Source: Escherichia phage vB_EcoM_MM02
Reading direction: 5' to 3' (one strand)
DNA length: 64,000 bases
Sequence record: MK373784.1
Part shown: positions 2,794 through 60,593 of the stretch, in pieces
Position numbering within the stretch: position 1 is the first letter of the stretch
How the letters are laid out: every line of letters starts with the position of its first letter
Notes under the pieces: model-generated
Seen by the model: only the letters and a program-made list of their open reading frames with translations
What the model was told of the DNA's origin: nothing
The model's database searches: none
Made by a program: the position numbers and the translations under genes

Positions 2794-4362
2794 ATGACTA
2801 CTATCAAAACTAAAGCTCAGCTCGTAGACAAATGGAAAGAACTGCTGGAAGGTGAAGGCCTGCCGGAAATCGCTAATAGCAAGCAGGCTATTATCGCTAA
2901 AATCTTCGAAAACCAGGAAAAAGATTTCGAAGTATCCCCTGAATATAAAGACGAGAAAATCGCTCAGGCATTTGGTTCTTTCTTGACCGAAGCTGAAATT
3001 GGTGGTGACCATGGTTATAATGCTCAGAACATCGCAGCAGGTCAAACCTCTGGTGCAGTAACCCAAATTGGGCCGGCAGTTATGGGTATGGTTCGTCGTG
3101 CTATTCCTAATCTGATCGCTTTTGATACTTGTGGTGTTCAGCCTATGAACAGCCCGACCGGTCAGGTATTTGCTCTCCGTGCAGTATATGGTAAAGACCC
3201 TATCGCTGCTGGCGCTAAAGAAGCTTTCCATCCGATGTATGCTCCAGATGCGATGTTCTCTGGTCAGGGTGCTGCTAAGAAATTCCCAGCTCTGGCTGCT
3301 GACACTACTACTGTTGTAGGTGATATCTATACTCACTTCTTCCAAGAAACTGGTACTGTATATCTGCAAGCTTCTGCTGTCGTAACACTTGATTCTGGTG
3401 CAACTGATGCAGCTAAATTAGATGCAGAAGTTAAGAAACAAATGGAAGCTGGTGCACTGGTAGAAATCGCTGAAGGTATGGCTACTTCTATCGCTGAACT
3501 CCAGGAAGGTTTCAACGGTTCTACCGATAACCCATGGAATGAAATGGGCTTCCGTATCGATAAACAAGTTATCGAAGCTAAATCTCGCCAGCTGAAAGCT
3601 GCTTACTCTATCGAATTAGCACAAGACCTCCGTGCAGTACACGGTATGGATGCTGATGCTGAACTGAGCGGTATTCTGGCTACAGAAATTATGCTAGAAA
3701 TCAACCGTGAAGTTGTTGATTGGATTAACTACTCTGCACAGGTTGGTAAATCTGGTATGACCCTGACTCCGGGTTCTAAAGCTGGTGTATTTGACTTCCA
3801 GGACCCGATTGATATCCGTGGTGCTCGTTGGGCCGGTGAAAGCTTTAAATCTCTGTTGTTCCAGATTGATAAAGAAGCAGTTGAAATTGCTCGTCAAACC
3901 GGTCGTGGTGAAGGTAACTTCATTATCGCTTCCCGTAACGTAGTTAACGTACTGGCTTCAGTTGATACTGGTATTTCTTACGCTGCACAGGGTCTGGCTT
4001 CTGGTTTTAATACCGACACTACTAAGTCTGTATTTGCCGGTGTACTTGGTGGTAAATACCGCGTATACATCGACCAGTATGCTAAACAGGATTACTTCAC
4101 CGTTGGTTACAAAGGCGCTAACGAAATGGATGCAGGTATTTACTATGCTCCTTACGTTGCACTTACCCCGCTGCGTGGTTCCGATCCTAAGAACTTCCAG
4201 CCGGTAATGGGCTTTAAAACTCGTTACGGTATCGGTGTTAACCCGTTTGCTGAAAGTTCCCTGCAGGCTCCAGGTGCTCGCATCCAGTCCGGTATGCCAT
4301 CTATCCTGAACAGCCTTGGTAAGAACGCTTACTTCCGCCGTGTATATGTAAAAGGCATCTAA
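2794..4362 (+). CDS. 23: major capsid protein gp23
   Basis: 522 aa; N-terminus and body read as near-identical to T4 gp23 from memory (..LPEIANSKQAIIAKIFENQEKDF..). Confidence 0.95.
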   Translation: MTTIKTKAQLVDKWKELLEGEGLPEIANSKQAIIAKIFENQEKDFEVSPEYKDEKIAQAFGSFLTEAEIGGDHGYNAQNIAAGQTSGAVTQIGPAVMGMVRRAIPNLIAFDTCGVQPMNSPTGQVFALRAVYGKDPIAAGAKEAFHPMYAPDAMFSGQGAAKKFPALAADTTTVVGDIYTHFFQETGTVYLQASAVVTLDSGATDAAKLDAEVKKQMEAGALVEIAEGMATSIAELQEGFNGSTDNPWNEMGFRIDKQVIEAKSRQLKAAYSIELAQDLRAVHGMDADAELSGILATEIMLEINREVVDWINYSAQVGKSGMTLTPGSKAGVFDFQDPIDIRGARWAGESFKSLLFQIDKEAVEIARQTGRGEGNFIIASRNVVNVLASVDTGISYAAQGLASGFNTDTTKSVFAGVLGGKYRVYIDQYAKQDYFTVGYKGANEMDAGIYYAPYVALTPLRGSDPKNFQPVMGFKTRYGIGVNPFAESSLQAPGARIQSGMPSILNSLGKNAYFRRVYVKGI

Positions 4363-37467: not shown

Positions 37468-39723
37468 TTAAAGCTTACAAGCAGAACAATCTTCTGCTTT
37501 AGGTGTTTCTAATTCATAGTCGTCTGTACCAGACCCATCACGAGTGTTATGATAGTAGAGGTTTTTTCCGCCAAAGTACCAGAAGTAAAGCAGATCGTCA
37601 AGCATTACTGACATTGGCACTTTACCTTTCTCAAATACTGCAGGGTCATAGTAAGTATTAGCAGAAGCAGATTGGCACACCCATTTCAACATGATAGCAA
37701 CTTGGGTCAAATAAGGTTTATTACCTTTCTTAGCAAGTTTCCACGCGTAGTCGTAAAGACTCATGTTATGTTCGATATTAGGAACAACCTGTCGGAAGTT
37801 GCCTTCTTTAGATTCTTTAATACTTACTGGACCACGTGGTGGCTCAATCCCGTTTGTAGAGTTTGATACTTGACTGCTTGACTCACAAGGCATGAGTGCA
37901 GACAACGTTGAGTTACGAATTCCATGTTCTTTGAGTTCAGCTCGAAGTTCTTCCCAGTCACAGACGTAGTTCGGGGCTGCGATTTGGTCAATCTTTTTAT
38001 TGTACCAGTCGATAGGTAATTCGCCTCTAGACCATTTAGTGTCTGAATAATACTCGCAACATCCTTTTTCTTTGGCGAGTTTGATTGAAGCTTTGATAAG
38101 GCCATATTGCAATCTCTCAAACAATTCATGAGTCAAATCGTTAGCGTCTTCATATGAAGCGAAGTTAGAAGCTAACCATGCGGCATAGTTCGTCACACCA
38201 ACACCGAGGTTTCGACGCTTTTTAGCTTTTAAAGCTTCCGGAACCGGATAATCTTGATAGTCTAGCAGGTTATCAAGTGCACGTACTTGTACTTCAGCAA
38301 GTTCATTAATTTTATCTTGGTCTTGCCAATCAAATTTATCTAATACAAAAGCAGATAATGTGCATAAACCAATTTCAGCATCAGGACCATTCACATCATT
38401 AGTTGGAATAGCGATTTCACAACATAAGTTACTCTGACGAATTGGAGCTTTTTCACGAATAAACGGAGTGTAGTTATTCGTGTTATCAACAAACTGTGGA
38501 TAAATTCGAGCAGTGCCAGAACGTTCAGTCATGAACAATTCAAAGAGTTCTAGTGCTTTGATTCTTTTCTTTCTGATTGTTGGGTCTTTTTCAGCTTTCT
38601 CATAAAGCTCACGGAATTTATCTTGATCTTCAAAGAACGAGTAGTACAGTTCGCCTGACATTTCGTGAGGGCTAAATAAAGTAATATAATCATTTTTACC
38701 AAGGCGTTCCATCATAAGGTCATTAATCTGAATTCCGTAGTCCATATGTCGAATACGGTTTTCATCCACACCTTTGTTATTTTTCAGAACTAATAGGTTC
38801 TCTACTTCTAAGTGCCACATCGGATAATACGCTGTAGCAGCACCACCACGAATACCACCTTGAGAACAAGATTTTACTGCAGTTTGGAAATGTTTCCAGA
38901 ATGGAATAACACCCGTATGTCGAACTTCACCCATACCGATCTTAGAACCTTCTGCACGAAGCATACCAACGTTGATACCAATACCAGCTCGTTTAGAAAT
39001 ATATTCAATAATTGATGCTGAAGTTTTGTTAATAGATTTTAACGAATCACCGGCTTCAATAACTACACAACTAGAGAACTGGCGAGTTGGAGTACGAGCA
39101 CCTGCCATAATTGGGGTTGGCAATGAAACTTGATGAGTAGAAACGGCATCATAAAAACGAATAATATGTTTCAAACGGTCATGAGTTTCGTCTTGGTGTA
39201 AGGCCATGCCAATAGCCATGATAGCAAACTGGGGAGTTTCATAAATCTTCCCAGTTGTTTTATCTTTAACTAGATATTTTTCTTTAAGCTGCATAGCACC
39301 AGCATAAGTCAGGTCAAAGTCTCGTTCATGTTTAATCTGTGAATCGAGATAAATGATTTCTTCTGCTGAATATTGAGACAACAGCTCAGGGTCATATTTG
39401 CCTTCATTAACACAATAAGAAATATGGTCGATAAAAGCAGGCGGTTCAAACTGCCCATATACATCTTTACGAAGTGCAAACATTAGCCCTTTGGCGGCGA
39501 CATACTGATAATCAGGTTCTTCGACAGAAATCGAGTTAGCTGCAACTTTAATACAAATCTTCTGGATATCTTTGGTGCTCATCCCGTCGACAAGATGGGT
39601 CTTAATTTCTTCGTACAATTCATATGGGTCAATTTGTGTTCCTTCACATTGCCAAGTTAAGACTTGAATAATTTTCTGTGCATCAAAATTTTGGGATACA
39701 CCACTGCTCTTAGTTACTTGCAT
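37468..39723 (-). CDS. nrdA: ribonucleotide reductase large subunit
   Basis: 751 aa; class Ia RNR active-site region (NLCCEI) and C-terminal CSACKL. Confidence 0.9.
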   Translation of the reverse strand: MQVTKSSGVSQNFDAQKIIQVLTWQCEGTQIDPYELYEEIKTHLVDGMSTKDIQKICIKVAANSISVEEPDYQYVAAKGLMFALRKDVYGQFEPPAFIDHISYCVNEGKYDPELLSQYSAEEIIYLDSQIKHERDFDLTYAGAMQLKEKYLVKDKTTGKIYETPQFAIMAIGMALHQDETHDRLKHIIRFYDAVSTHQVSLPTPIMAGARTPTRQFSSCVVIEAGDSLKSINKTSASIIEYISKRAGIGINVGMLRAEGSKIGMGEVRHTGVIPFWKHFQTAVKSCSQGGIRGGAATAYYPMWHLEVENLLVLKNNKGVDENRIRHMDYGIQINDLMMERLGKNDYITLFSPHEMSGELYYSFFEDQDKFRELYEKAEKDPTIRKKRIKALELFELFMTERSGTARIYPQFVDNTNNYTPFIREKAPIRQSNLCCEIAIPTNDVNGPDAEIGLCTLSAFVLDKFDWQDQDKINELAEVQVRALDNLLDYQDYPVPEALKAKKRRNLGVGVTNYAAWLASNFASYEDANDLTHELFERLQYGLIKASIKLAKEKGCCEYYSDTKWSRGELPIDWYNKKIDQIAAPNYVCDWEELRAELKEHGIRNSTLSALMPCESSSQVSNSTNGIEPPRGPVSIKESKEGNFRQVVPNIEHNMSLYDYAWKLAKKGNKPYLTQVAIMLKWVCQSASANTYYDPAVFEKGKVPMSVMLDDLLYFWYFGGKNLYYHNTRDGSGTDDYELETPKAEDCSACKL

Positions 39724-39810
39724 ATATTCCTCAGTATAGGTTGATAGACATTACTCCAAACGGGATAGTATTTATCCCGTTAATTTATTATACACTTTTA
39801 AACTGAAGCG

Positions 39811-40065
39811 TTAATTATCCTCAGCAATAATTTCTTCGTATTCTTTAGGTGTCAAGACTGTGATATTGAAATAAACCAACGGTTCTTTTTCTATACCGAA
39901 TCCACCACAAAATTCACGATATTCATAAATTCGTTCATGTGAATAACAAATGAATCGTTCACCTTTAACTGTGATTTCACTATTTGGTGAAGGGATATCC
40001 AGTTCACTTGGATTTTTCATTTCAAAAATTGTGGTGCCATATGAATTAATAAAACGTAAAATCAT
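39811..40065 (-). CDS. hypothetical protein, 84 aa
   Basis: ATG ORF between td and nrdA. Confidence 0.45.
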   Translation of the reverse strand: MILRFINSYGTTIFEMKNPSELDIPSPNSEITVKGERFICYSHERIYEYREFCGGFGIEKEPLVYFNITVLTPKEYEEIIAEDN

Positions 40066-40066
40066 T

Positions 40067-40927
40067 TTATACCGCCATTTTAGCTTTGATAGCTGGATGA
40101 GATTCGTAATTTTTAAGAACGAAATCAGAATGTGTCATCGTTCCAGTAACCCAGTCCATTTGGATTTTTGTAGGCCAATTCTCAAAATTACTAGGCCAAT
40201 TAATTTCAAGAGAACATAACTCTTTAGGTTCACGACGAAGAACTTCTTTGCATTGTTCTACATGATTGCTGTAGATATGCGTGTTGCCGCCTGAGAACAC
40301 TAAATCACCTGGGATAAGGTTACACATCTTCGCTACAATATGCGTCAAGGCAGCGTACGAGGCAATGTTGAATGGCAGGCCCAAGAAAACATCTACACTG
40401 CGTTGATACCATTGTAAATCAAGATGCCCATTACGCACATTAAATTGATAGAACATATGACAAGGAGGAAGAGCCATTTGGTCAATTTCGGCAGGGTTCC
40501 ATGCAGAAACTATTTGACGACGATCATTAGGAAGAGCTTTAATACGGTCGATAGTTTTGACCAATTGGTCTACACCACCAAAATCACGCCATTGCTTACC
40601 ATAAATAGGACCAAGTTCGCCGCTATGATATCCAAGGTCTTTTGCCTGATTTTCATAGTTGTCGTCCCAAATAGTTTTACCTTGAATAAGACTACCATGA
40701 GTACGAATACGCAAATCATTAACATTGGTAGAACCAGACATGAACCACAGTAACTCGGCAATACAAGCTTTCCATGCTAATTTCTTAGTTGTTACTGCAG
40801 GGAATCCTTTAGTCAGATCCCAACGTAATTTAGTTCCGAACAGGGCAATAGTGCCGGTGCCTGTACGGTCGTCTGTTTCGTAGCCATTTTCTAGGATATC
40901 ATTAATCAGGTATTGGTATTGTTTCAT
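40067..40927 (-). CDS. td: thymidylate synthase, uninterrupted
   Basis: 286 aa, same length as T4 Td; ThyA-type segments (LPPCHMFYQF, MALPPCH). Confidence 0.95.
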   Translation of the reverse strand: MKQYQYLINDILENGYETDDRTGTGTIALFGTKLRWDLTKGFPAVTTKKLAWKACIAELLWFMSGSTNVNDLRIRTHGSLIQGKTIWDDNYENQAKDLGYHSGELGPIYGKQWRDFGGVDQLVKTIDRIKALPNDRRQIVSAWNPAEIDQMALPPCHMFYQFNVRNGHLDLQWYQRSVDVFLGLPFNIASYAALTHIVAKMCNLIPGDLVFSGGNTHIYSNHVEQCKEVLRREPKELCSLEINWPSNFENWPTKIQMDWVTGTMTHSDFVLKNYESHPAIKAKMAV

Positions 40928-41511
40928 TTATAAACGCTCTCAGTAATTTCGGTGAGTTCATCGATTCTGTAGTAATGAGATTCTACCATAGAACGTTGAA
41001 GCATAATATCTTGGACGAAATCTTTATCAAGTTGAACATCGGAATTAACACGACATTTCTTAATGATTTTAGTCATCACGATTTCATCGGCATAAGGCAG
41101 TGCTTGTTTAAGTAGAGCAGGACCGCCGATAACAGATACATTAACATGTTCAGTAGAAAGTTTAAACGGTACATCAGTTGCAGGGCTAAACAGGTTAATT
41201 TCACCACCTGTTACCAAGGTAATAAATTCAGATTGGGTGATATAGAACCGTGCAAGTTCATCAGTTTTAGTCCTAGGCAGTTTTCTGGCCATATCAGTGA
41301 CAACCACATGAGTACGATCTGGGAGTAGACGAGGTAATGATGCAAAAGTCTTAGCACCCATAACCATTACAGTGTTTTTAGTGCGAGCAACAAAGTTACT
41401 CATATCTTGTTTGATATGCTTCCATGGAAGTCCATCACCTAATCCAAAAGCATATTCCAGTTTATCATCAACTGTTTTAGATGGTGCGCATGCGAATACT
41501 AATTTAAGCAT
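40924..41511 (-). CDS. frd: dihydrofolate reductase
   Basis: 195 aa; DHFR-like GLGDGLPW; ATGA overlap with td. Confidence 0.9.
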   Translation of the reverse strand: MLKLVFACAPSKTVDDKLEYAFGLGDGLPWKHIKQDMSNFVARTKNTVMVMGAKTFASLPRLLPDRTHVVVTDMARKLPRTKTDELARFYITQSEFITLVTGGEINLFSPATDVPFKLSTEHVNVSVIGGPALLKQALPYADEIVMTKIIKKCRVNSDVQLDKDFVQDIMLQRSMVESHYYRIDELTEITESVYK

Positions 41512-41752
41512 TTTTAAGTCCTTTAATAACTTTTTGGATTTGTGATTTAGACGAAACTAGTTCTGTCTGAATTTCCAAACCATCGGTTTGGTCAAATGTT
41601 GTAACACAAACGCGAGGTTTTGTTGTGTATCGCCCAGACAAATCAAATGCGTCGCCAATGAATTCGGCCAAATCCGAATGGTCTAAATTAACTGAAGTAT
41701 AAACTTCATATCCGACATCAGCGCCTTGAGAGTATTCAACAACAACATTCAT
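41504..41752 (-). CDS. hypothetical protein, 82 aa
   Basis: ATG ORF between frd and 32. Confidence 0.45.
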   Translation of the reverse strand: MNVVVEYSQGADVGYEVYTSVNLDHSDLAEFIGDAFDLSGRYTTKPRVCVTTFDQTDGLEIQTELVSSKSQIQKVIKGLKNA

Positions 41753-54773: not shown

Positions 54774-55325
54774 ATGAAACTCTATCACTATTATTTTGAC
54801 ACTAAAGAATTTTACAAAGAAGAAAATTATAAACCATTAAAAGGCGTAGGATTTCCGGCTCATTCGACACCAAAAAAACCTTTAGACCCTAAAGAAGGCT
54901 ATGCTGTTATATTTGATGAACGCGAGCAAGAATGGGTATATGTTGAAGACCATCGCGGAAAAACAGTATGGACTTATGATAAGCAAAAAATTGTTATTGA
55001 CACTCCAGGTGCTCTTCAAAATGTCACTACAGAAGAACCAGGTGAATTTGACCTTTGGACTGACGACGGGTGGAAGGAAGATGAAGCGTATAAGCGGGTA
55101 GTTCAACGTGATAAGAAAATTCATGAACTCTATAAATTATTCAGTGTTTTAAGTTCTCTTATTGATGCAGAGGTTGCTAATAGAGAAGAAAAACGAAAAT
55201 TTAAAGAGCTCAAAAAATTCTTTGCCCTTTTAGAAAAACATGAACATCTTGGCGGCGAATTCCCTAAATTCCCTGACCTTGAAAGCAAATCACTTGTTAA
55301 ACGAATTATAAATATCTTTAAGTAA
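54774..55325 (+). CDS. 38: tail fibre assembly chaperone / adhesin gp38
   Basis: 183 aa; N-terminus M-K-x-YHYYFDTKEFYKEENYKP as T4 gp38. Confidence 0.8.
   Translation: MKLYHYYFDTKEFYKEENYKPLKGVGFPAHSTPKKPLDPKEGYAVIFDEREQEWVYVEDHRGKTVWTYDKQKIVIDTPGALQNVTTEEPGEFDLWTDDGWKEDEAYKRVVQRDKKIHELYKLFSVLSSLIDAEVANREEKRKFKELKKFFALLEKHEHLGGEFPKFPDLESKSLVKRIINIFK
55307..55314 (+). promoter_or_regulatory. T4-type late promoter TATAAATA (holin t)
   Basis: Exact TATAAATA ~20 bp upstream of ATG 55335. Confidence 0.6.
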
Positions 55326-55334
55326 GGAGGTATT

Positions 55335-55994
55335 ATGGCAACACCAAAAGTGTCATTTTCGCCTAGTGATATTCTATTTGGGTTGCTAGATCGTATTTTC
55401 AAAGATAACGCTACTGGAAAGGTTTTAATGTCACGAGTAGCGGTAATTATTCTTTTGTTCCTAATGGCACTAATATGGTACAAAGGAAGTATTTTGCTGG
55501 ATTATTATGTAAGATCTAAGTATGATACTTATACTGAAATAATCCAAAAAGAACGAGCTTTACGTTTTGAATCTGCGGCTCTAGAACAACTGCAAATAGT
55601 TCATATCTCATCTGGTGCAGATTTTAGTGCTGTGTATTCTTTCAGACCTAAAAACTTAAATTATTTCGTCGACCTTATAGCTTATGAAGGCAAACTGCCT
55701 AGCACAATTTCTGAAAAGTCCCTTGGGGGATTCCCGGTGGATAAAACGGCCAATGAATATATAATTCATTTAAGTGGCCGTCATTTCTCGTCTAAATCAG
55801 AATTTGCATTTTTGCCTACAAAATCTAAAACTGCCGAACTTTCTTATATGTATAGTTGTCCATACTTTAATTTGGATAACATCTATGCTGGAACTGTGAC
55901 GATGTATTGGTATAAGGGGAATAATATACTTGAGGAAGATCGCTTAGCGGCTATATGCAACCAAGCGGTCCGAATACTAGGAAGGGCTAAATAA
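55335..55994 (+). CDS. t: holin T
   Basis: 219 aa; N-terminal TM segment then large periplasmic domain; long identity blocks with T4 T; late promoter 55307-55314. Confidence 0.9.
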   Translation: MATPKVSFSPSDILFGLLDRIFKDNATGKVLMSRVAVIILLFLMALIWYKGSILLDYYVRSKYDTYTEIIQKERALRFESAALEQLQIVHISSGADFSAVYSFRPKNLNYFVDLIAYEGKLPSTISEKSLGGFPVDKTANEYIIHLSGRHFSSKSEFAFLPTKSKTAELSYMYSCPYFNLDNIYAGTVTMYWYKGNNILEEDRLAAICNQAVRILGRAK

Positions 55995-56267
55995 TTAGTT
56001 GTTAGAATACATCGCTAAATGACGATAAATATTTTCAAAACCTTCATTGAATTCACTAATCAGTGTTTTCTTTTCTTCGGCAGTTAAATTTGTAATTAGT
56101 TTTCTAAAAGAATTCTGATTTAGCTGCCGACCATCTTTTTTAATTCCAATCTCATTCAAGAATCCGATGAAACTTGCTCGGTCTTCAACAATATCTTCCC
56201 TAGAGAATTTAATCAAAATAGAAGCAATAGTAATAATTTCACGTACGATTTCAATGTCTTTATTCAT
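55995..56267 (-). CDS. asiA: AsiA anti-sigma70 factor
   Basis: 90 aa; VREIITIASILIKFSREDIVE and NQNSFRK match T4 AsiA pattern. Confidence 0.9.
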   Translation of the reverse strand: MNKDIEIVREIITIASILIKFSREDIVEDRASFIGFLNEIGIKKDGRQLNQNSFRKLITNLTAEEKKTLISEFNEGFENIYRHLAMYSNN

Positions 56268-56313
56268 AACGTTTTATTCATTCCACTTAATTGATATGAG
56301 TATAGTACCATTA

Positions 56314-56475
56314 TCAGTGTTGATTGTAAACGGCTTTTTCTACGCTTTTAACGTAATTGGTGTAGTCTTCCTGTTCATACGAGTGTAAGACCAAGAATTG
56401 AACTAATAGTTCATTATAGACTAAAGCCTCACGCTCACGTTCGGCCTCTACTACGTTCTGAAGATTATGACTCAT
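56314..56475 (-). CDS. small hypothetical protein, ~53 aa
   Basis: ORF-track N-terminal extension overlaps next gene; ATG 56473-56475 with SD AAGGAA. Confidence 0.35.
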   Translation of the reverse strand: MSHNLQNVVEAEREREALVYNELLVQFLVLHSYEQEDYTNYVKSVEKAVYNQH

Positions 56476-56764
56476 ATTGTTCCTTATAACTATCAATGTA
56501 GTCCTGTATGTCGAAGAATGACATTTCATATTCTAGGACATTAAGAGCCCGTTCTTCAGTATAGTCAGAACCAAAGACGATAGTGATTTCACCGGGCTTC
56601 ATGTGATTGAAATCGACACTAAAAGGAATACGAGAACATACTTCGTCTGCCATATCTACGATAACACTACGACACACTTCTCGGTTAACCTGATAAAGCT
56701 CTGCAAGTTCTTCACATCGAATAACAAGTTCAGTGGCAGGATTTTCTTTGATTTTAGTAAGCAT
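56465..56764 (-). CDS. acidic small protein, possible Arn (anti-restriction) homolog
   Basis: 99 aa, strongly acidic; one gene downstream of asiA where T4 has arn; identity not verified. Confidence 0.35.
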   Translation of the reverse strand: MLTKIKENPATELVIRCEELAELYQVNREVCRSVIVDMADEVCSRIPFSVDFNHMKPGEITIVFGSDYTEERALNVLEYEMSFFDIQDYIDSYKEQYES

Positions 56765-56838
56765 AGTCTTTACCCTTATGTTTTTGTTTGCGTTTAGATT
56801 GAAGTTCTGATTTCTTCTTGTCCTTATGGACAGAAGCC

Positions 56839-57066
56839 TTATTGAAATCGTGTTTTGCTACAAGATTGTTCATAATGATTTATAACCTCATTTAAACATT
56901 TGTCTGTGAAAGAAAACTTTTTAGCCACAGAACATTCGATAATGTGCTCTTTCAAATCTTTAGAGTCAGTATAACCCATCTCAGTAATAAAGTGGCGAAT
57001 TAAAGCTTTATTCTTATCATTAACAGAATTAAAATAATCTGCTTTAGAATCAATTATTCTCATCAT
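56839..57066 (-). CDS. hypothetical protein, 75 aa
   Basis: ATG ORF in arn-motA island. Confidence 0.4.
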   Translation of the reverse strand: MMRIIDSKADYFNSVNDKNKALIRHFITEMGYTDSKDLKEHIIECSVAKKFSFTDKCLNEVINHYEQSCSKTRFQ

Positions 57067-57331
57067 CTAATTTCCTTAATTGATATTGCAACGAGCTAAT
57101 AATTTCTTCGTTCATTTTAATATACATGTCGCGCAAGAAAGGTTTTAACCCATCACGAATAATTGCTAACGTATCACCTTTACATAAATTAACCAAATAA
57201 GGATGGTCTAAAGCATCCCAACCAGGCTGATTAGCATACATACCATAATTTTCTTCCATCATAGCATTCAGGCGTTTGATATGATTAATGTGGGCTTCAA
57301 TAGCATCAATCTGGAGTTGTTTAAGATTCAT
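57050..57331 (-). CDS. hypothetical protein, 93 aa
   Basis: ATG ORF in arn-motA island. Confidence 0.4.
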   Translation of the reverse strand: MNLKQLQIDAIEAHINHIKRLNAMMEENYGMYANQPGWDALDHPYLVNLCKGDTLAIIRDGLKPFLRDMYIKMNEEIISSLQYQLRKLDDENN

Positions 57332-57792
57332 TAGTAAAGGTCCTCAGAGTAAAGTTCTTTTTCATTACCACCACGTTCAATACGTACTTGTCCAGCGTAA
57401 GTTGCAATAATCATTGCTTCTTCACGTGTCCAATAATTACTATACTGGTCAATAAACCCTTGGTCATCATCACAAACTTGTTGAGTAACTAATTGAGGTT
57501 TAACTACATCTAAAACTTCTGCCATATCTTTAGAATAATGACGAGCACCTGGAATAATAAGAGTTCGTCCATCTTTTAATTTAAAACGGTTGGCTGCGCA
57601 GACAATTCGTCGTTGATACTTTTGGTTTTCATCCCAATACAGAGTCTGCCAACAGATTTCAGGAACTTCATCTAAAACATTTTGTTCTGTATATTCACCA
57701 CCGTAAGAAGCTAATTTAGCAGCCAGACTTTCCGGAGTCTCACGCGACAAAGCTTTATCTAACAGAGCTAAACGTTCTTTAAAAGTTTTCAT
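57331..57792 (-). CDS. hypothetical protein, 153 aa
   Basis: ATG ORF in arn-motA island. Confidence 0.45.
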
Positions 57793-58139
57793 TTAAACCA
57801 TCCTTTAATACGTTGCCAAATAGATTTTTGTGCTTGTTTATTTACACCAATCGAACGAATAACCGGTTGTGACTGCTGATATTCTTTATAATCTTCTTTA
57901 TAGATTTCGTAAGCTGCATCAACAAATGAACTGATCGCTGCCATGTAGTTTTTACGAAGGCCAAATGGCGCGTCATTATTTTCACGAATAACCGTATATT
58001 GACCTGCTTTAATCTTTACAATTGTCCCTAAATAAGCCCCGTGGTACCAAATATCCCATCCTTCCTGAGTAGGTTCTGCACATTTACGAAGTTCGTTAAT
58101 AATATTCAGCTTATTCATTATGTATTCCTCACAGTACAT
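57789..58139 (-). CDS. hypothetical protein, 116 aa
   Basis: ATG ORF overlapping motA 3' end. Confidence 0.45.
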
Positions 58140-58761
58140 TAGTTACAAGGGTAATGATTTCTTTGGACACATTAGGGAAGTCAATGTAAGTATATTTACC
58201 ACCGATTTTAATCTTAACATCATTTTCAAGAGAAGTAAACAGCTTTGATTCAGTTTCTGACATGTTGTATGCAAAGATTCTAAGAGCGCCATCTCGACGA
58301 ATTTCGATCTGACGAATACCTAGAACTCGTTTTGCAAATCGAACTTCTAAGTTACTACGGTTTTCACCAATTTCTTTAACTTCAACTTTATCTTTAATAT
58401 TTTCAAAAACAAAGTTTGCTAGTTCATGCATTTCAGGAGTAACTCCACGTGCTTTTCTGGTGTTACGTTTTTGAAGAAGTTCTGGAGCATTTTCTTGAGC
58501 AAATAGGTCTGCAGCTTTTTGGATAATATCCATTGCTTCGCCTGTTGCTACAAGTCCATCACCGGATTTTTCGACTAAACCTTTCTTAATCAATACACCA
58601 ATGTTAGAGTTAACAACTGATGCATTGTATTCTGCTTCCAGAGCTTCACGGACATTGGCAGCAGTGGTGAAGTTGTTCTTAATGATATAAACCATTATTG
58701 CAGCAGTTTTTTCATTCAGAGCGTTTTCAGAAGCTTTGATGATGTAAGTAACTTTAGACAT
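58129..58761 (-). CDS. motA: MotA middle-transcription activator
   Basis: 210 aa; N-terminus MSKVTYIIKAS and VVNSNIGVLIKKGLVEKSGDGL match T4 MotA pattern. Confidence 0.85.
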   Translation of the reverse strand: MSKVTYIIKASENALNEKTAAIMVYIIKNNFTTAANVREALEAEYNASVVNSNIGVLIKKGLVEKSGDGLVATGEAMDIIQKAADLFAQENAPELLQKRNTRKARGVTPEMHELANFVFENIKDKVEVKEIGENRSNLEVRFAKRVLGIRQIEIRRDGALRIFAYNMSETESKLFTSLENDVKIKIGGKYTYIDFPNVSKEIITLVTNVL

Positions 58762-58798
58762 TTTATTTCTCCAAATTAGTATTTGTTTTGATAGGTCT

Positions 58799-58827
58799 AT
58801 AATATCATGTTTGAAGCAAAAGTAAAC
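58799..58827 (-). promoter_or_regulatory. early promoter cassette, family C, upstream of motA
   Basis: GTTTAC-N17-TATTAT with embedded TGCTTCA; duplicated at 59121-59149. Confidence 0.5.
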
Positions 58828-58865
58828 TTTATTTTGGGCTCTTTTTCCAAAAGCCCTGGTAAAAT

Positions 58866-59081
58866 TTACAAACTCATTTCTTTAATAAGGCTAATAAGTT
58901 TTGCCTTTTTAGAACGAAGCTTTTCTAAATGATGTCCATTTGAACCGCGAACCACTAAAGAATTGATTTCAACTTCTAAGAAATTTAATTCTTCAACAAG
59001 TGCTTTACGGGGAGCATTCATACCAGGTTTAACTTTACCGAAACGAGTAGTTGTGTTTTGGGTTAATTTCATTTTAGACAT
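58866..59081 (-). CDS. hypothetical protein, 71 aa
   Basis: ATG 59079-59081; shares near-identical promoter and 5' leader with motA. Confidence 0.45.
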   Translation of the reverse strand: MSKMKLTQNTTTRFGKVKPGMNAPRKALVEELNFLEVEINSLVVRGSNGHHLEKLRSKKAKLISLIKEMSL

Positions 59082-59120
59082 TTTATTTCTCCAATTTGGT
59101 TGTTTTGTTTTGATAGGTCT

Positions 59121-59149
59121 ATAATATCATGTTTGAAGCACGTGTAAAC
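59121..59149 (-). promoter_or_regulatory. early promoter cassette, family C, upstream of 71-aa ORF
   Basis: Near-identical copy of motA promoter and leader. Confidence 0.5.
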
Positions 59150-59175
59150 TGTTTTGTGAGGAAAAAATGCACAAA

Positions 59176-59191
59176 GGGAGCCGAAGCTCCC
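59176..59191 (-). terminator. terminator downstream of gene 52
   Basis: gggagc-cgaa-gctccc; minus strand followed by U-rich tract. Confidence 0.55.
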
Positions 59192-59267
59192 TAATCATGT
59201 TTGTCCAACCAATATAGCCAAATCACTAGTACAGCTATTGCACCGAGAAATCCTAAGGCTAGGGCAC

Positions 59268-60593
59268 TCAAAGTGCCTCCAAGTCTTTAGTGTACTCTGT
59301 CACAACATCAGTAGACTTCCAATACTCATTTTCTTCTTTCTTAGCTTTAGCTTCTTCTGCTAGTTTACGTGCTTCGTCGGAAGTGATATGGAAGATGTTA
59401 AGACCTACCAGTTTATCGACATGTTCTTTATACATTTCGATTTGTGCTAGCTCTTCAGTCAAAGCTTTACGAGTCTTGCCCTGAATCACAATTTCACCTG
59501 TAATAACTTTTTTGATGAAGTGTGCCTTAGCAAAAGCAAGTTTAAATGCTTTTTCAGATTCAAGGATTTTATTGTCAATACGTTTCTGAACGTAAGTCTT
59601 ACGGACTTCAACAAAATCTTTGATTAAGTCCACTACGTTATCGTAGACCGCTAATTTACCCTTTTCATTAATCACTGTGATGTTTTGTGAACGACGTTCG
59701 ATGAGACTAAAATCTTTCATGATTTTTTCATGACGTAGCTCTTCATCATCAGGAAGCGAGTACTCTTTACGGAACTTCACCTTAAACCCAAAGCCGTGTT
59801 CACCGCAATCATCTTCCCATGAGATTAGACCTTTGTCTTCCAACGGGTCAAGAACCTTACTCACATACGTTTCACGGTCGAATTTATATGGGATTTCAGT
59901 TATCTGCATTTGAGTGCGAGATGTGAACTTATACGTTCCGTGAATCTCATAACGCCCATCAACTTCATGTACTTCACCACGGAATTCCGGGAATTCAACT
60001 TTTGGCTTAGTGACATTTTTACCTTGAAGAGCTTGTAATACAGCCTTTTTGACTGATTTAAAACTATGAGGCAGAATATTTGTTGCGTAACCGGTTGCAA
60101 TACCAGAGACGCCATTCAAAAGAACTGTCGGAATAATAGGAAGATAGAATTTTGGTGGAATATGTTCTTTATCTTCATGAGCTGGAGCATATTCAGTGTC
60201 TTTATATACGTTATAGAAATTTTTACTTACACGAGCAAAAATATAACGAGATGCTGCAGCTTTTTGGACTGTTCTAGAACCAAAGTTGCCTTGGCCATCT
60301 AACAGTGGATAGTTGTTGTTCCATGTGTTGGCCATCAATGCACCTGCATCTTGTGCAGAAGATTCACCATGGTGATAACCTAAATCTGCAACACCGCCTG
60401 CAATTGACGCAAGTTTATGAAATTTTTCTTTATTACCACGAGCCAAATCTAACGCGCGATGAACCACAAAACGTTGAACCGGCTTAAATCCATCAATCAT
60501 GTTTGGGATTGCACGGTTTTCAACGGTGTACATCGCATATGCTAAGGCTTCGTTATCAATAATACTTTTTAGATTACGAGAATTCAATTGCAT
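59268..60593 (-). CDS. 52: DNA topoisomerase II medium subunit gp52
   Basis: 441 aa; type II topoisomerase A-subunit-like N-terminus (AIPNMIDGFKPVQRFVV). Confidence 0.9.
   Translation of the reverse strand: MQLNSRNLKSIIDNEALAYAMYTVENRAIPNMIDGFKPVQRFVVHRALDLARGNKEKFHKLASIAGGVADLGYHHGESSAQDAGALMANTWNNNYPLLDGQGNFGSRTVQKAAASRYIFARVSKNFYNVYKDTEYAPAHEDKEHIPPKFYLPIIPTVLLNGVSGIATGYATNILPHSFKSVKKAVLQALQGKNVTKPKVEFPEFRGEVHEVDGRYEIHGTYKFTSRTQMQITEIPYKFDRETYVSKVLDPLEDKGLISWEDDCGEHGFGFKVKFRKEYSLPDDEELRHEKIMKDFSLIERRSQNITVINEKGKLAVYDNVVDLIKDFVEVRKTYVQKRIDNKILESEKAFKLAFAKAHFIKKVITGEIVIQGKTRKALTEELAQIEMYKEHVDKLVGLNIFHITSDEARKLAEEAKAKKEENEYWKSTDVVTEYTKDLEAL

Follow-up and report, generated by a model that had tools for sequence, protein, structure and literature searches.

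The interval between the genes asiA and motA of Escherichia phage vB_EcoM_MM02 was analyzed in a stretch of 64,000 nucleotides from sequence record MK373784.1, which is referred to below as the window. The second open reading frame (ORF) of this interval counted from asiA, ORF2, appears to encode a strongly divergent Arn-family protein, situated in the Mosigvirus version of the motA-arn-asiA block, and its product is most likely a decoy that mimics DNA. The probability of this reading is estimated at about 0.75. An earlier inspection of the same DNA, made without database searches (the sequence-only reading), had described the product of ORF2 as Arn-like, and this description is supported by synteny, by transitive and profile homology, and by a predicted fold that matches the structure of T4 Arn (Protein Data Bank (PDB) entry 3WX4).

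Sequence relationship between ORF2 and T4 Arn

ORF2 occupies the arn slot. Like arn in T4, it is flanked by an asiA.1 homolog on one side and by the DUF7230 and arn.1 genes on the other. The protein contains 21 aspartate and glutamate residues and 9 lysine and arginine residues. Its net charge of -12 and its isoelectric point (pI) of 4.29 agree with the strongly acidic 99-residue product that the sequence-only reading placed at positions 56465-56764, and they put ORF2 in the top 3% of acidity among the ATG-initiated ORFs of the window that are at least 60 residues long. Strong acidity in a small protein is also the property of all Arn subfamilies, whose net charges range from -9 to -18 and whose pI values range from 4.05 to 4.55, two outlier sequences excepted. 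Compared to T4 Arn, ORF2 is longer (99 versus 92 residues), more acidic (net charge -12 versus -9) and carries an additional acidic C-terminal tail, SYKEQYES. The two proteins are about 16% identical, and 8 of the 16 acidic positions of T4 Arn are aligned with an acidic residue in ORF2. No second Arn-like gene was found in the window.

The homology of ORF2 to Arn can be traced with the help of intermediate sequences. An exhaustive HMMER (phmmer) search of 1.8 billion representative proteins with ORF2 added one relative with 61% identity and a metagenomic protein of 91 residues, P0010, which is matched over residues 1-91 with an expectation value (E) of 5.8e-5. The gene of P0010 immediately precedes an asiA.1-like ORF and asiA, and the protein aligns with T4 Arn from end to end with 33% identity (pairwise E 7e-11). 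Against the complete DM_Arn profile of Pfam (PF22134), P0010 reaches 16 bits (E 0.015). The ORF2-type protein of a Gaprivervirus is 39% identical to Arn across the C-terminal 36 residues (E 1e-6). When a profile of the ORF2 family was compared with the whole PDB, the sole match was 3WX4, with an E of 1.6e-6 and 85 of the 95 profile positions aligned.

The same relationship was evaluated by comparing profiles of the ORF2-type and T4-type families with hhalign. The probability is 6-7% for the Mosigvirus-type sequences alone, 79% after addition of the Dhakavirus and Gaprivervirus sequences, and 94% when P0010 is added as well; moving P0010 to the Arn side gives 96.6%. Every one of these alignments is colinear. 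The alignment of ORF2 with Arn has several landmarks in common, namely L20, G58, L74 and a D88-Y89 motif, and the C-terminal regions of the two proteins share the pattern [KR]-x-G...V-[IV]...[ED]-[ED]-x-x-L...[IL]-[EQH]-D-Y-[IF]. Full-length colinear homology to Arn, understood in a broad sense, is thus found for ORF2 via P0010, via the family profile and via hhalign with the intermediates included.

Two other sets of matches to ORF2 were rejected. For a tandem dimer of the PP7 coat protein (6n4v, E 4.9e-4), the score counts one weak segment twice, each copy having an independent E of about 5, and the single-copy protein has an E of 0.8. P0008 and P0009, which are long repetitive surface proteins from the exhaustive search, have scores inflated by 5-10 repeated weak stretches.

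Predicted fold of ORF2

The single-chain AlphaFold2 (AF2) model of ORF2 has a mean predicted local distance difference test score (pLDDT) of 93.0 and a predicted template modeling score (pTM) of 0.78, and its topology is beta-alpha-alpha-beta-beta-alpha-alpha. Comparing a predicted structure with that of a DNA mimic had been proposed as a check in the sequence-only reading. A Foldseek search of the PDB with the model returned T4 Arn (3WX4) as the top match, with a probability of 1.00, and as the only match with an E below 1e-3. The model and 3WX4 superimpose over 97 columns with a root-mean-square deviation of 2.4 Å and template modeling (TM) scores of 0.79 and 0.80; the TM scores of all the following matches are at most 0.5. 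The ORF2 model therefore has the Arn fold, as predicted from an input alignment that includes T4-type Arn.

T7 Ocr and other DNA-mimic anti-restriction proteins of phages resemble ORF2: they are small and very acidic, are made early, and have been proposed to mimic DNA and to titrate DNA-binding defense proteins. The targets of Ocr are type I restriction-modification, BREX and RNA polymerase. These proteins have neither a sequence nor a fold relationship to ORF2, for which Foldseek gave Arn only.

Possible mechanism and alternative explanations

By combining the above results with the information available on T4 Arn, it is possible to suggest how ORF2 might act. T4 Arn inhibits McrBC, which attacks DNA containing non-glucosylated hydroxymethylcytosine. 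As a structural mimic of DNA, it sequesters H-NS via the DNA-binding domain of that protein, and it inhibits the PUA-Cal-HAD defense by binding to its PUA domain. Early in infection, ORF2 would likewise serve as a DNA-mimicking decoy. By occupying host proteins where they bind DNA, the decoy would shield phage DNA that is incoming or incompletely modified. The mimicry expected of the Arn family is that of a homodimer with surface charges resembling the phosphate backbone of duplex DNA. The gene set, its colinearity with T4, the homology, the predicted fold and the conserved acidity are results of the analysis, and from them we infer the DNA mimicry of ORF2, its dimerization and the identity of its targets, as well as the co-transcription of the block described below.

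Several observations weigh against this reading. A direct BLASTP comparison of ORF2 with T4 Arn gives no match, and ORF2 is not matched by Pfam DM_Arn even at an E of up to 10, so that it falls outside the curated family; likewise, Pfam, NCBIfam and a phmmer search of the PDB give no Arn signal for ORF2. The gathering score of DM_Arn is 26 bits and T4 Arn scores 186.7 bits: the curated model reaches the T4-type subfamily only. The homology between ORF2 and Arn depends on the intermediates, because the profile built from Mosigvirus-type sequences alone gives the low hhalign probability quoted above. Eight T4-type Arn sequences were present in the AF2 alignment for ORF2, and 3WX4 is older than the training of AF2, so the model could be drawn towards the Arn fold. 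The absence of a direct BLASTP or Pfam signal, the low probability of the Mosigvirus-only profile and the Arn sequences in the AF2 alignment would fit an ORF2 that is an unrelated acidic protein and came to the arn position by non-orthologous displacement, the fold match being an artifact of the Arn sequences in the alignment. Such a displacement is, nevertheless, very improbable. The chain that leads from ORF2 to P0010 and from P0010 to T4 Arn is independent of AF2. Other parts of the sequence evidence oppose it as well: the match of the Dhakavirus/Gaprivervirus protein to the C-terminal 36 residues of Arn, the selection of 3WX4 as the sole PDB match by the family profile, and the colinear end-to-end alignments with their common landmarks.

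The other points against the reading concern the target of the decoy. Three positions distinguish the Arn proteins of T2 and T4, which are unlike in their inhibition of PUA-Cal-HAD, and the single substitution N70S abolishes this inhibition in T4 Arn. Target specificity is therefore not transferable to ORF2 at 16% identity. Furthermore, the DNA of Mosigvirus phages contains arabinosylated 5-hydroxycytosine instead of glucosyl-hydroxymethylcytosine, a difference that may make McrBC a threat of little relevance. It is possible, if only tentatively so, that ORF2 has kept the Arn fold and has been retargeted to another host protein, such as a type IV or GmrSD-like enzyme or another defense that senses arabinosylated or 5-hydroxycytosine DNA, its DNA-mimic activity towards McrBC being lost or irrelevant. 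The low identity to T4 Arn, half of whose acidic positions are not kept, the difference in specificity that already exists between T2 and T4 Arn, and the nearly exclusive occurrence of the two Arn types in Tequatrovirus and Mosigvirus, two genera with different cytosine modifications, are consistent with retargeting. The conservation of the net charge and fold in ORF2 argues against it, as does Yersinia phage phiD1, which is classified as a Tequatrovirus but has the Mosigvirus-type allele, meaning that this allele functions in a T4-type phage and has no strict link to arabinosylation. It is unlikely that the main role of ORF2 is to relieve H-NS silencing or to assist host takeover in another way, alongside asiA and motA, rather than to counter restriction. 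The position of the gene in a block framed by two middle-transcription factors and the AT-rich DNA of the phage (about 35% GC here), which is the kind of DNA preferred by H-NS, fit such a role, but sequence cannot separate it from anti-restriction, one DNA mimic can do both, and arn was defined genetically by the inhibition of McrBC. A wider proposal, which is rather doubtful, joins several of these elements: the Mosigvirus-type Arn would represent a distinct specificity class that is exchanged between genera together with the tail-fiber/holin block, as in phiD1, and neutralizes other defenses, and Arn.3 would represent an uncharacterized fold, possibly an enzyme, and have a counter-defense activity of its own.

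Distribution of the two Arn types

The divergent Arn encoded by ORF2 and the T4-type Arn are distributed in a nearly mutually exclusive manner, mostly between Mosigvirus and Tequatrovirus, respectively. T4-type Arn is present in 485 records of the phage collection, all at 88% identity to T4 Arn or higher. The ORF2-type protein is present in 165 records at 80% identity or higher and in 13 further records at about 30-35%. Two of the latter were examined, one a Dhakavirus and the other a Gaprivervirus, and in both of them the ORF2-type gene lies in the same slot.

The Arn of phage phiD1, classified as a Tequatrovirus, is 100% identical in protein sequence to the Mosigvirus-type allele. When positions 37571-41561 of phiD1 are compared with positions 54774-58761 of the window, the DNA identity is 95-100% from gp38 through arn.2 and then decreases to 90% in arn.3, 79% in arn.4 and 70% in motA. 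The decrease indicates a recombination junction within the conserved arn.3. As judged from these DNA identities, phiD1 indicates that the Arn allele moves together with the tail-fiber/holin/asiA block, and a strict tie of the Arn type to arabinosylated DNA is weakened by the same phage.

Shigella phage sb4 carries at positions 1501-1776 an unannotated T4-type arn, 88% identical to T4 Arn and interrupted by an in-frame stop. This gene may be a pseudogene.

Organization of the asiA-motA interval

The phage of the window is a Mosigvirus-type T4-like phage. Over a 2.9-kb region around asiA-motA, the identity to Mosigvirus phages, among them AV110 and mar005P1, is 99%, and at least 80% of the region is present in 147 phage records. 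The long tail fiber genes, gp38 and the holin gene precede the interval in the window, and the topoisomerase gene 52 follows it. As the sequence-only reading had proposed, the space between asiA (55995-56267) and motA (58129-58761) is filled by a block of small ORFs on the minus strand (Table 1). Their number, given as six in that reading, is in fact seven: the basic 39-residue ORF at 56754-56873 had been missed or merged. Seven genes are also annotated in the interval in the database records of relatives. For each of the seven ORFs there is a match among the PHROG families (E 4e-22 to 1e-73), and because of these matches and of the retention of the block in 147 records, all seven are regarded as real genes. 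Neighboring genes overlap or abut throughout, either as ATGA or TAATG or by sharing 4-35 nucleotides (nt), and each is preceded by a Shine-Dalgarno sequence. The layout is therefore that of one translationally coupled unit.

Table 1. Genes and promoter-like sites in and around the asiA-motA interval (positions in the window)
Feature	Position	Strand	Properties
asiA	55995..56267	-	anti-sigma-70 factor, 90 residues; downstream boundary; Pfam AsiA E 2.4e-32; 73% identity to T4 AsiA
sigma-70-like promoter	56302..56330	-	TTTACA-17-TACTAT with extended -10 TG; immediately before asiA and within the 3' end of ORF1; found by consensus scan
ORF1, AsiA.1 homolog	56314..56475	-	53 residues, acidic; phrog_5245 E 6.5e-30 (residues 19-71 of the 71-residue reading); 162 nt annotated in mar005P1
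ORF2, divergent Arn-family protein	56465..56764	-	99 residues; net charge -12, pI 4.3; predicted DNA-mimic anti-restriction decoy
ORF3, DUF7230 / RB32ORF249c peptide	56754..56873	-	39 residues, lysine-rich, basic; Pfam PF23876 E 5.4e-13; phrog_1359 E 3.8e-22
ORF4, Arn.1 homolog	56839..57066	-	75 residues; 74% identity to T4 Arn.1 (annotated 43 residues); phrog_4452 E 3.8e-40
ORF5, Arn.2 homolog	57050..57331	-	93 residues; 40% identity to T4 Arn.2, E 4e-20; phrog_1844 E 8.8e-42
ORF6, Arn.3 homolog	57331..57792	-	153 residues; 83% identity to T4 Arn.3
ORF7, Arn.4 homolog	57789..58118	-	109 residues; 76% identity to T4 Arn.4 over 67 C-terminal residues; 330 nt annotated in relatives
motA	58129..58761	-	activator of middle transcription, 210 residues; upstream boundary, first gene of the unit; MotA_activ E 2.4e-39, MotCF E 2.2e-8; 51% identity to T4 MotA
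T4-early-type promoter	58799..58826	-	TTTACT-16-TATTAT with extended -10 TG; upstream of motA, within the ~84-nt repeat

Two gene limits that follow from the sequence-only reading (block 56314-58139) need correction, as the 5' limits of ORF1 (56529) and Arn.4 (58139) are those of the longest ORFs and are not the likely starts. ORF1 probably starts at 56475 rather than 56529. The ATG at 56475 has the Shine-Dalgarno sequence AAGGAA 5 nt upstream and yields the N-terminus MSHNL, the same as that of T4 AsiA.1, whereas the 71-residue reading from 56529 starts inside ORF2 and has no Shine-Dalgarno sequence. ORF7 (Arn.4) probably starts at 58118. This ATG is preceded by the Shine-Dalgarno sequence GAGGAA, and the alignment with phrog_1594 begins at residue 8 of the 116-residue reading that extends to 58139, which makes the longer reading less likely.

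Comparison with the T4 operon

In the T4 reference record, asiA.1, arn, arn.1, arn.2, arn.3 and arn.4 are annotated between asiA and motA. The count of six T4 genes in the sequence-only reading agrees with this annotation, but its list does not, as motA.1 lies outside the interval, between motA and gene 52, and asiA.1 lies inside. BLASTP of the window against the T4 proteins pairs ORF1 weakly with AsiA.1 (E 5e-4) and ORF4 to ORF7 with Arn.1 to Arn.4, leaving only ORF2 without a partner. The sequence-only reading saw no recognizable motifs in the other five ORFs of its set; they are homologs of T4 asiA.1 and arn.1-arn.4, to which the DUF7230 gene is to be added. All six genes besides ORF2 thus have T4 homologs, and the block, with its colinear asiA.1 and arn.1-arn.4 homologs between asiA and motA, belongs to the T4-type arn operon. 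The operon of the window and that of T2 and T4 (arn.4-arn.3-arn.2-arn.1-arn) have in common the gene order, the close packing and the position after motA and before asiA.1 and asiA. They differ in the gap between motA and arn.4, which is 10 nt in the window and 133 nt in T4, and in that Arn.1 and Arn.4 of the window are full length and have canonical ATG starts.

T4 contains an intact unannotated ORF of 39 residues on the minus strand at positions 3581-3700 of NC_000866, MNNLVAKHNFNKASVHKDKKKAFKESNRKQKHKGKVYDY, beginning with MNNLVAKHNFNKASVHKDKKK, which is homologous to the DUF7230 ORF3 of the window. It shares 11 nt with the start of arn, as ORF3 does in the window. The asiA-motA interval of T4 therefore holds seven genes as well, and the Mosigvirus-type window and T4 share these seven genes in identical order. 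ORFs nearly identical to ORF3 occur at the same position in Dhakavirus, Gaprivervirus and T4.

Two other T4 genes are open beyond their annotated limits. The frame of arn.1 (minus strand, NC_000866 3675-3893), which is annotated as 43 residues, is open up to a TTG codon preceded by AAGGTG. The extended product of 72 residues matches the 75-residue Arn.1 of the window (56839-57066) over its full length. The pattern of differences by codon position is alike in the extension and in the annotated part, a similarity that is not decisive for coding. The frame of arn.4 (minus strand, NC_000866 4628-4966) extends without interruption as far as the stop codon of motA and specifies a homolog of the N-terminal 41 residues of the window Arn.4 (57789-58118), and the codon corresponding to the ATG start of the latter is ATA in T4. 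T4 Arn.4 (68 residues) looks to be truncated at its N-terminus or to start at a non-canonical codon.

On the other side of motA, the minus strand of the window at 59191-59271 contains a hydrophobic ORF of 26 residues, which overlaps the gene 52 stop codon by 4 nt and is the positional counterpart of T4 motA.1. A G+C-rich hairpin at 59175-59192, whose loop is of the UUCG type, overlaps with this ORF.

Transcription and ArcZ control

The seven genes and motA are probably co-transcribed from the early-type promoter that precedes motA. According to the consensus scan, the frequency of promoter-like sites in this AT-rich region is not above chance, and both promoter assignments in Table 1 therefore rest on position. 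The early-type promoter is part of an approximately 84-nt direct repeat, whose two copies (58753-58836 and 59073-59158) are 84-89% identical. The repeat combines an early-type promoter with a Shine-Dalgarno sequence and the initial codons (MSK); motA follows one copy, and the other is followed by a basic ORF of 71 residues (58866-59081), which has no T4 counterpart at that position.

No credible terminator was found inside the asiA-motA block; a terminator-like hairpin at 57219-57200 is weak, and the number of hairpins is within chance expectation. A middle promoter inside the block was dismissed, as the only minus-strand MotA box of the form TGCTTNA (57209-57215) lacks a correctly spaced -10 element. 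TGCTTCA sequences at 58812 and 59134 were rejected as middle promoters because they lie 7 nt from the -10 element, which is the spacing of an early-type promoter. An Rfam scan of 55500-59600 gave nothing credible.

In T2, RNA data show that the genes from arn.4 to arn form one abundant transcript, and the operon is regulated by ArcZ and RNase E (bioRxiv 10.64898/2026.06.19.733364). A site that pairs with ArcZ is reported to lie at the 3' end of arn.2 and to be followed by a 70-nt spacer between arn.2 and arn.1 with an RNase E site (bioRxiv 10.64898/2026.06.19.733364). This "intergenic region" is probably coding, because the arn.1 frame of T4 is open to the TTG codon. The ArcZ target CCAGGGAAAU follows directly after the TTG of the extended T4 arn.1. 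In the window, the corresponding site at the 3' end of arn.2 and the start of arn.1 (57050-57075) is degraded to UUAAGGAAAU. The predicted seed duplex with E. coli ArcZ has an energy of -14.8 kcal/mol in the window, where it is not the best site of the operon, and -26.0 kcal/mol in T4, where it is. Moreover, arn.2 and arn.1 overlap by 17 nt in the window, unlike in T2 and T4, and there is no 70-nt spacer. The window thus lacks the T2-type combination of ArcZ site and RNase E spacer, and this phage probably does not share the control by ArcZ and RNase E.

Arn.3 and Arn.4

The genes arn.1-arn.4 are listed as being of unknown function in the 2026 T2 preprint (bioRxiv 10.64898/2026.06.19.733364). 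Arn.3 is the product of the most conserved gene of the block; 157 homologs are listed with the precomputed Pfam family PF26092, and the core domain is widespread, being present in many unrelated phage groups, jumbo phages among them. The protein has 14 invariant residues, among them R84-H85 and Q111-G112-F113-x-D115, and its signature can be written as R-H...QGF-D...Y..R. The AF2 model has a pLDDT of 86, with a core above 90. The model has no neighbor among the PDB folds (best E 0.09, TM 0.18), and the sequence has no match in the PDB. All BFVD matches of Arn.3 are uncharacterized phage proteins, and there are weak matches to proteins with a "large polyvalent protein associated domain". A resemblance to cytidine deaminase was dismissed (E about 2, TM 0.2). 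The modeled core domain of Arn.3 is thus a candidate for a new fold or enzyme. Arn.4 gave only chance-level matches in the PDB.

Significance for the Arn family

It is plausible that the asiA-motA block is a reservoir of host-takeover and anti-defense functions, as put forward in the sequence-only reading. ORF2 represents a previously unrecognized divergent subfamily of a known anti-restriction protein in a known operon, and not a new mechanism. Many records of relatives label the homologs of arn.1-arn.4 "anti-restriction nuclease" and the true Arn homolog "hypothetical protein". The former label has spread through gene nomenclature and not through functional evidence. The identification of ORF2 as an Arn corrects the annotation of about 180 sequenced phage genomes in which the ORF2-type gene is called "hypothetical protein".

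The Arn family now comprises at least four subfamilies at 16-35% identity, which form a natural series for finding the residues on which the choice of target by a DNA mimic depends. This question is topical because the Arn proteins of T2 and T4, only three positions apart, differ in their inhibition of PUA-Cal-HAD.

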